NCBI RefSeq assembly: GCF_003334765.1
Contig: NZ_QOWT01000044.1
Strand: one strand, 5' to 3'
From: Escherichia coli
GTDB taxonomy: Bacteria > Pseudomonadota > Gammaproteobacteria > Enterobacterales > Enterobacteriaceae
DNA length: 26,384 nt
Of this stretch, positions 25,948 to 25,977 are shown piece by piece. The notes beneath the pieces are model-generated. The model was not told the DNA's origin, searched no databases, and was given only the letters and a program-made list of their open reading frames with translations. Within the stretch, counting starts at the first letter, position 1. The number at the start of each line of letters is the position of its first letter. Position numbers and translations under genes: made by a program.

Positions 25948-25977
25948 GTTATACATTTGTTGCATATCATTATGCAA
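25948..25977 (-). promoter_or_regulatory. Candidate kgtP promoter overlapped by a perfect 18-bp palindrome
   Basis: Minus strand reads TTGCAT (25972-25977), 18-bp spacer, TATAAC (25948-25953); the dyad TTGCATA-TCAT-TATGCAA at 25960-25977 covers the -35. Confidence 0.3.

Follow-up and report, generated by a model that had tools for sequence, protein, structure and literature searches.

The inverted repeat in the kgtP promoter of Escherichia coli very probably combines two ordinary promoter elements, a -35 hexamer on one strand and a repeat of an ArcA site on the other, with a two-fold symmetry that is incidental. The symmetry is best explained as a coincidence between the -35 sequence, TTGCAT, and an ArcA repeat variant, TTGTTGCA, found on the opposite strand. 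The work concerns a 26,384-nucleotide stretch of contig NZ_QOWT01000044.1 (assembly GCF_003334765.1), which we call the window, and feature coordinates along it are collected in Table 1. The basis for the reading given here is the anatomy of the sequence, the scores and phasing of the ArcA repeats, and the finding that the repeat array is conserved while the symmetry is not; oxygen control of kgtP by ArcA, and possibly by FNR, is already known from published work. For the start site, ChIP data and genetics we rely on published experiments, done in strains other than that of the window.

Read directly, window positions 25960..25977 are TTGCATA-TCAT-TATGCAA, and complementarity gains one further pair (G25959/C25978), which makes an 8-4-8 dyad of 20 bp corresponding to NC_000913.3 2725829-2725848. 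A preliminary description of this DNA had reported a perfect 18-bp palindrome with 7-4-7 arms. The letters of that claim are correct, if one pair short, but with a central TCAT that cannot pair with itself, the element is an interrupted dyad and not a true 18-bp palindrome. When perfect dyads with arms of at least 8 and a spacer of at most 10 are counted against dinucleotide-preserving shuffles, the whole window contains 14, compared with 4.5 +/- 1.9 in the shuffles, and the excess consists mostly of GC-rich hairpins resembling terminators or REP elements. By chance alone, the 180-bp intergenic stretch would hold one or more such dyads with a probability of 0.032, and the 50-bp core promoter with a probability of 0.014. 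The kgtP dyad is mildly unusual locally and becomes unremarkable once all promoters in the 26 kb are scanned.

Table 1. Features of the kgtP promoter region, numbered from the first letter of the window.
Feature	Position	Strand	Description or basis
kgtP CDS, alpha-ketoglutarate:H+ symporter, 432 aa (regulated gene)	24576..25874	-	ORF and annotation
ArcA-P site, three 11-bp-phased direct repeats	25935..25966	+ (antisense to kgtP)	Park 2013 and matrix
DR1 TGGTAAA	starts 25935	+	ArcA repeat
kgtP transcription start, approximate	25940	-	mutated C (25948) published as -8
DR2 ATGTTAT	starts 25946	+	ArcA repeat over -10
kgtP -10 hexamer TATAAC (TATAAT in K-12)	25948..25953	-	published -10 mutation; conserved in orthologous promoters
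DR3 TTGTTGC(ATA)	starts 25957	+	ArcA repeat, equal to left arm of dyad
FNR-like site TTGTT-GCAT-ATCAT	25957..25970	no strand	8/10 against TTGAT-N4-ATCAA
Interrupted dyad GTTGCATA-tcat-TATGCAAC	25959..25978	no strand	8-4-8 arms
Probable kgtP -35 hexamer TTGCAT, equal to right arm of dyad	25972..25977	-	position relative to anchored -10
yfiS, annotated 20-aa small protein, K-12 b4783	26055..26117	+	annotation and ORF

The window has the E. coli gene order pssA-yfiM-kgtP(-)-yfiS(+)-rrfG(-), and its core kgtP promoter can be anchored by published work in BL21(DE3). In that strain, the 5' end of kgtP was mapped by RACE, and a C->T mutation at -8 relative to that end, 73 nt before the AUG, produces a consensus -10 and raises kgtP mRNA 20- to 80-fold (PMC8317463). 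The mutated C is window position 25948 on the minus strand, the last base of the -10. Taken together, the RACE start and the activating mutation fix the -10 at 25953..25948 and the start near 25940. Once the -10 is anchored in this way, the right arm of the dyad falls at the -35 position and the left arm falls in the spacer, with the dyad covering about -19 to -38, counted from the kgtP start, and centred near -28.5. TTGCAT lies 18 bp upstream of TATAAC (promoter spacer 17-18 bp) and matches the -35 consensus TTGACA at only 3 of 6 positions, which is why a simple consensus scan misses the promoter. We infer that TTGCAT is the -35 actually used, and the earlier observation that the dyad overlaps a minus-strand -35 candidate for kgtP stands, as its right arm is the TTGCAT of 25977..25972. 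A sigma70 ChIP-seq peak maps to U00096.2 2723847 (approximately window 25955), where occupancy is 9985 aerobically versus 1222 anaerobically, or about 8-fold (PMC3688515 Table S2), and the kgtP/rrfG spacer is among the 'constitutive' promoters recovered by SELEX with RpoD holoenzyme (PMC3946193).

Several features of this promoter vary among strains. The -10 reads TATAAC in the window, in all other sampled non-K-12 alleles and in most orthologous promoters (a few have TGTAAC), while that of K-12 MG1655 is TATAAT, with the base change that activates kgtP 20- to 80-fold in BL21(DE3). The K-12-type 30-mer occurs in 350 of 5,426 genomes, and its carriers, among the strains listed, are mostly recognisable laboratory derivatives of K-12. 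K-12 thus seems to carry an up-promoter allele of kgtP, and data from K-12 may overstate kgtP expression at the level of the species. The kgtP-rrfG spacer as a whole is unusually polymorphic in E. coli, with most genomes 90-99% identical over 181 bp, and the T-tract of the kgtP 5' leader (window 25925-25937) differs in length among strains.

The left arm coincides with part of a published ArcA site. Within the ArcA ChIP-seq peak 'kgtP1' of Park 2013, three plus-strand direct repeats are found in TTGTAAAGGAAATATTATACATTTGTTGCATA and score 7.6, 3.0 and 8.9 bits, the strongest being TTGTTGCATA (PMC3798270 Tables S3/S4), which is the left arm of the dyad. We rebuilt ArcA matrices from 114 other boxes of Park 2013, with kgtP left out; by these, repeats begin at 25935 (5.8 bits), 25946 (8.7 bits) and 25957 (6.8 bits), each exactly 11 bp from the next. 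With 15.9 bits, the 18-bp box at 25946-25963 is close to the training median of 16.0 and belongs to the top 0.004% of window positions. The promoter therefore carries at least two TGTTA-like direct repeats on one strand, spaced 11 bp centre-to-centre and scoring in the range of known boxes. The GTTGCA of the third repeat is itself a recurrent variant in genuine ArcA boxes, including those of feaB, putA, fadL, cydA3 and nepI, and ArcA-dependent repression of kgtP in K-12 is 8.8-fold (PMC3798270).

Genetic evidence from CFT073 points the same way. Anaerobiosis represses kgtP about 40-fold in this strain (Cai 2017, PMC5318444), and loss of arcA raises its anaerobic expression by a factor of about 700. 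In gels, a 230-bp fragment of the kgtP promoter is shifted by ArcA and also by an FNR variant (PMC5318444). ArcA is the main anaerobic repressor of kgtP, and what it recognises is a set of direct repeats on a single strand, phased at 11 bp, rather than a dyad. The preliminary description had left the binding factor, if any, unassigned, but ArcA already fills that place, given a three-repeat ChIP-seq site whose strongest repeat is the left arm and the size of the effect of losing arcA. Some ambiguity surrounds the register. The ArcA match proposed by Cai 2017, GTTGCATAAT at window 25978..25969, is on the strand opposite to the Park repeats (PMC5318444). We did not adopt this minus-strand placement: its AGGTTGC scores only 4.0 bits, and no minus-strand 18-bp box overlaps the right arm. 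No base-resolution footprint of the kgtP promoter was found in the literature searched, and the plus-strand register is the probable one.

A second ArcA ChIP-seq peak, 'kgtP2' (U00096.2 2724003-2724010), contains no recognisable ArcA box (Park 2013). It maps to about 26111-26118, near the end of yfiS and REP-like sequence at about 26120-26140. Further along, the rrnG terminator hairpin occupies 26162-26187 and the 5S rRNA 26201-26316 on the minus strand. On our reading, the sequence at about 26120-26140 resembles a REP element.

Variation within E. coli separates the two arms. Alleles were counted as exact 28-30-nt matches in 5,426 complete E. coli genomes, 91% of which are covered by the alleles counted. 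The perfect dyad is found in 1,866 genomes (34%), and the commonest allele, A25964G, breaks a pair without compensation in 2,196 (40%). A further 322 genomes (6%) carry the O157-type combination G25962A + A25964G, which turns the left arm into TTGTTAC and so improves the ArcA repeat at the expense of the dyad. In 554 (10%), 25964G/25965C occurs together with G25974A; both arms are altered here, but the altered bases of one are not the partners of the altered base in the other. Neither the TGTT core of the ArcA site nor the -35 TTG varies among these alleles. An operator for a dimer would be expected to keep its symmetry, with paired positions conserved or co-varying, whereas here the arms change independently and without compensation. 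The fixed TGTT and TTG and the uncompensated arm changes argue for two independent elements and not for a protein that reads the dyad, and judged by this variation the symmetry shows no apparent sign of selection. Pairing that is not preserved by natural variants also counts against a nucleic-acid hairpin, either an RNA element or a DNA cruciform, the probability of which we place close to negligible. If transcribed, the dyad would form an 8-bp stem of -9.5 kcal/mol (z = -3.6); however, it lies upstream of the mapped kgtP start, is followed by no U-tract on either strand and has no Rfam match at the site.

The alleles also bear on the possibility of two face-to-face -35 hexamers, one on the minus strand for kgtP and one on the plus strand (25960-25965) for yfiS. 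Both arms do read TTGCAT 5' to 3' on their own strands, and the small plus-strand ORF that had been noted about 80 bp away is indeed yfiS, starting at 26055, 78 bp downstream of the dyad. Nevertheless, the common alleles turn the plus-strand hexamer into TTGCGT, TTACGT or TTGCGC, and no acceptable plus-strand -10 is available at 16-18 bp (AACCAT, ACCATG, CCATGA). A promoter scan finds no plus-strand promoter there, although the same scan missed the known kgtP promoter, and our search gave no start-site evidence for yfiS. No link between yfiS and the dyad was found. We regard a divergent promoter of this kind as highly unlikely.

A similar contrast between a retained array and a changing symmetry is seen across genera. 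We fetched 80 kgtP loci of other species and aligned their promoters on the -10, which gave 25 alignable promoters without indels. The -10 and the ArcA box formed by DR2 and DR3 are kept in 25/25, from Escherichia to Kosakonia, at 15.9-21.9 bits, with the Escherichia box the weakest. The dyad is confined to the three Escherichia lineages, and none of the aligned promoters outside Escherichia has it. E. coli, E. albertii and a divergent lineage (locus L002) share the same 7-bp arms, whereas the centre of the dyad varies among the three (ATGA, TCGC, ATTA). The dyad arose by several Escherichia-specific substitutions on both sides and is a derived feature of Escherichia only.

What most non-Escherichia genera have instead is a CRP box, TGTGA-N6-TCACA with 0-2 mismatches, whose centre lies 27 bp upstream of the -10, a spacing that corresponds to class II geometry. 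At the Escherichia kgtP promoter, no CRP box with at most 2 mismatches is found; GGTTGCAT occupies the position of the CRP right half, and TGTTGC stands where the others have TGTTAT. Escherichia thus appears to have undergone a lineage-specific switch, in which a class II CRP box gave way to a CRP-independent, -35-like TTGCAT with the ArcA array kept. Deletion of crp still lowers kgtP expression in CFT073 (PMC5318444). This swap of a CRP box for a -35 may interest students of regulatory evolution. In window coordinates, the CRP-box position is about 25978-25993, and the box is seen upstream of kgtP in loci L004-L030. Just upstream of this position, an 8-bp block at 25996-26003, TTAGCAGG (CCTGCTAA when read on the kgtP strand), is retained by almost every genus in the alignment, Escherichia included.

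The origin of the dyad within Escherichia raises the question of whether it could be an operator for an additional, still-unnamed dimeric regulator, gained when the ancestral CRP-dependent promoter was replaced. The perfect 8-4-8 symmetry, the local chance probability of 0.014-0.032, the identical arms around a variable spacer in three Escherichia lineages and the derived state of both arms relative to other genera all speak for such a site. Yet only a minority of E. coli genomes carry the perfect form, and in the commonest allele one pair is lost with no matching change in the other arm; the motif recurs within the window only at chance level; no other factor is tied to kgtP in the literature searched (CytR, ChIP-exo, SELEX); and the conservation of the arms is fully explained by the -35 and DR3. 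We consider an extra operator of this kind quite improbable. The chance is similarly small that the Escherichia dyad does function as the operator of another dimeric regulator (NsrR or CytR in a non-canonical register, or an uncharacterised factor), gained at the replacement of the CRP promoter and later eroded in many E. coli lineages, and it is just as unlikely that a further factor would use the dyad in strains with the perfect allele. Of the preliminary suggestion of an operator for a dimeric regulator, one part survives, in that a stretch over the -35 is bound by a repressor. The other part, that its symmetry is read, is contradicted by the unconserved dyad, the uncompensated alleles and the use of direct repeats by ArcA.

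Among named factors, NsrR, a nitric-oxide-sensing repressor of the Rrf2 family, recognises the palindrome AAGTTGCATTT-N-AAATGCAACTT, with the same half-site and orientation as the dyad. We scored the site with matrices from 26 published sites (an 11-bp half-site and a 23-mer full site). The left arm, TTGTTGCATAT, reaches 9.1 bits compared with a half-site training median of 10.1 and is in the top 0.04% of window 11-mers; the right arm reaches 5.0 bits. Were one base removed from the centre, the resulting 23-mer would score 10-16.5 bits, in the range of real sites, and single half-sites are reported to be sufficient in vivo (PMC5320621). Like NsrR operators, the dyad thus has the half-site core GTTGCAT in inverted orientation, but unlike those 11-1-11 operators its halves are spaced 11-2-11, with a centre 1 bp too long, and its best native full-site score is 2.5 bits against a training minimum of 12.1, far from the range of known full sites. 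The left arm does score as a single half-site, but common E. coli alleles degrade it to 1.1-4.1 bits. In CFT073, for which the arm sequences quoted by Cai 2017 match the perfect allele, kgtP does not appear in the NsrR ChIP-seq and predicted-site tables of the main text. Binding of NsrR here has, in our estimate, a very low probability. Elsewhere in the window, AAGTTGCTTGTAAAAGATAAGTA at 604-626, in an apparently intergenic stretch, is the best match to the NsrR 11-1-11 matrix (13.8 bits, training minimum 12.1).

CytR presents a similar half-site resemblance, directly readable from the sequence: the two GTTGCATA octamers that it would bind each match the CytR octamer GTTGCATT at 7/8, as in CytR operators, and the protein accepts repeats in direct or inverted orientation and at different spacings (PMC3454398). 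The consensus orientation, however, is TGCAA-N2-3-TTGCA, or AATGCAAC-N2-GTTGCATT, while the kgtP half-sites are everted (TTGCA-N8-TGCAA). CytR also works with flanking CRP sites, and the Escherichia kgtP promoter has no CRP box; neither TGCAA-N-TTGCA nor direct repeats between CRP sites are therefore found here. A comparative-genomics search for paired CytR boxes predicted nupT (ycdZ) as a new member, with kgtP not mentioned in the parts of that study consulted, and our literature search gave no link between CytR and kgtP regulation. We find binding by CytR scarcely credible.

Further candidates were tried and rejected. Fur has the 19-bp box consensus GATAATGATAATCATTATC, against which the kgtP-strand sequence CATAATGATATGCAACAAA matches 12/19, but the match lies mostly in the dyad centre, which differs in the other Escherichia lineages. 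A sigma54 promoter would require a spacing of 10, and the kgtP strand offers TGG-N8-GC; published deletion of rpoN has no effect on kgtP (PMC5318444). An operator of the MerR type within the promoter spacer does not fit a dyad centred at -28.5 rather than about -22, nor a promoter spacer of 17-18 bp. A second, smaller dyad, AAATGT-tat-ACATTT (6-3-6, 25945-25959), directly adjoins the 8-4-8 dyad and covers parts of the -10 and of ArcA repeat 2. The sequence GAAATGTTATA (25943-25953) equals one half of the Zur-box consensus, and the second half is not present.

For FNR, the evidence is mixed. The preliminary description had been unable to match the site to the FNR consensus, but TTGTT-GCAT-ATCAT agrees with TTGAT-N4-ATCAA at 8/10 positions. 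Its centre (25963.5) is 5 bp off that of the dyad. It is also the kgtP FNR site published as ATGATatgcAACAA (25970..25957), with a gel shift on the 230-bp probe in CFT073, in which an fnr mutant derepresses kgtP about 4-fold anaerobically (PMC5318444). In K-12, kgtP is absent from the tables of FNR ChIP peaks and predicted sites (Myers 2013 Tables S5, S6), and the right half-site is not conserved: locus L002 has GCGAT there and locus L003 has ATAAT. The site thus lacks the combination of in vivo occupancy or genome-scale prediction with conserved half-sites, and direct action of FNR on kgtP is uncertain.

We return to the reading that we prefer, in which the dyad would be a by-product of two known kgtP promoter elements that have a common core, TTGCA, on opposite strands. 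The right arm would serve on the kgtP strand as the -35 hexamer for sigma70 RNA polymerase, and the left arm on the other strand would be DR3 of the three-repeat ArcA-P site. That site would extend from about +5 to -26, covering the start, the -10 and the spacer. When reduced quinones accumulate at low or no oxygen, phosphorylated ArcA would fill the repeats and exclude RNA polymerase, and FNR may add a smaller effect through its overlapping, offset site. The two-fold symmetry would not have to be read by any protein. For kgtP, it has been proposed that repression occludes the -35 region (Cai 2017, PMC5318444), and we likewise infer repression by occlusion.

Several points weigh on the other side. 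Identical arms around a variable centre would also fit a spaced operator, although the constraints of the -35 and DR3 predict this pattern equally well. The Escherichia-specific substitutions on both sides could reflect the gain of a new site. Finally, the local chance probability is only 0.01-0.03, and TTGCAT matches its consensus at half of its positions, in a promoter that the scan did not call. The value of this analysis lies mainly in correct annotation, and little beyond. It carries the caution that a -35 and a direct repeat with a common core on opposite strands can give a perfect dyad at a promoter, and comparison within a population and across genera can reveal symmetry that is not under selection.

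Compared with known systems, the 8/10 match at kgtP resembles FNR repression sites over core promoters in lying between the -10 and the -35, but differs from them in the lack of a K-12 ChIP peak and in a right half that varies within Escherichia; the FNR effect on kgtP is small and could be indirect. The closest likeness is to the ArcA-P sites with multiple direct repeats over sigma70 promoters described in Park 2013 (e.g., the three-repeat site of icdA), which are of the same kind as that of kgtP, and kgtP is itself listed there as a three-repeat ArcA site. Common to kgtP and these sites are three TGTTA-like repeats, 11 bp centre-to-centre, over the start, the -10 and the spacer, and kgtP is like other ArcA targets in being a carbon-oxidation or uptake gene that is repressed anaerobically. 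The Escherichia kgtP promoter differs from them in its third repeat, which is the GTTGCA variant instead of GTTAT and is the reverse complement of the adjacent -35.
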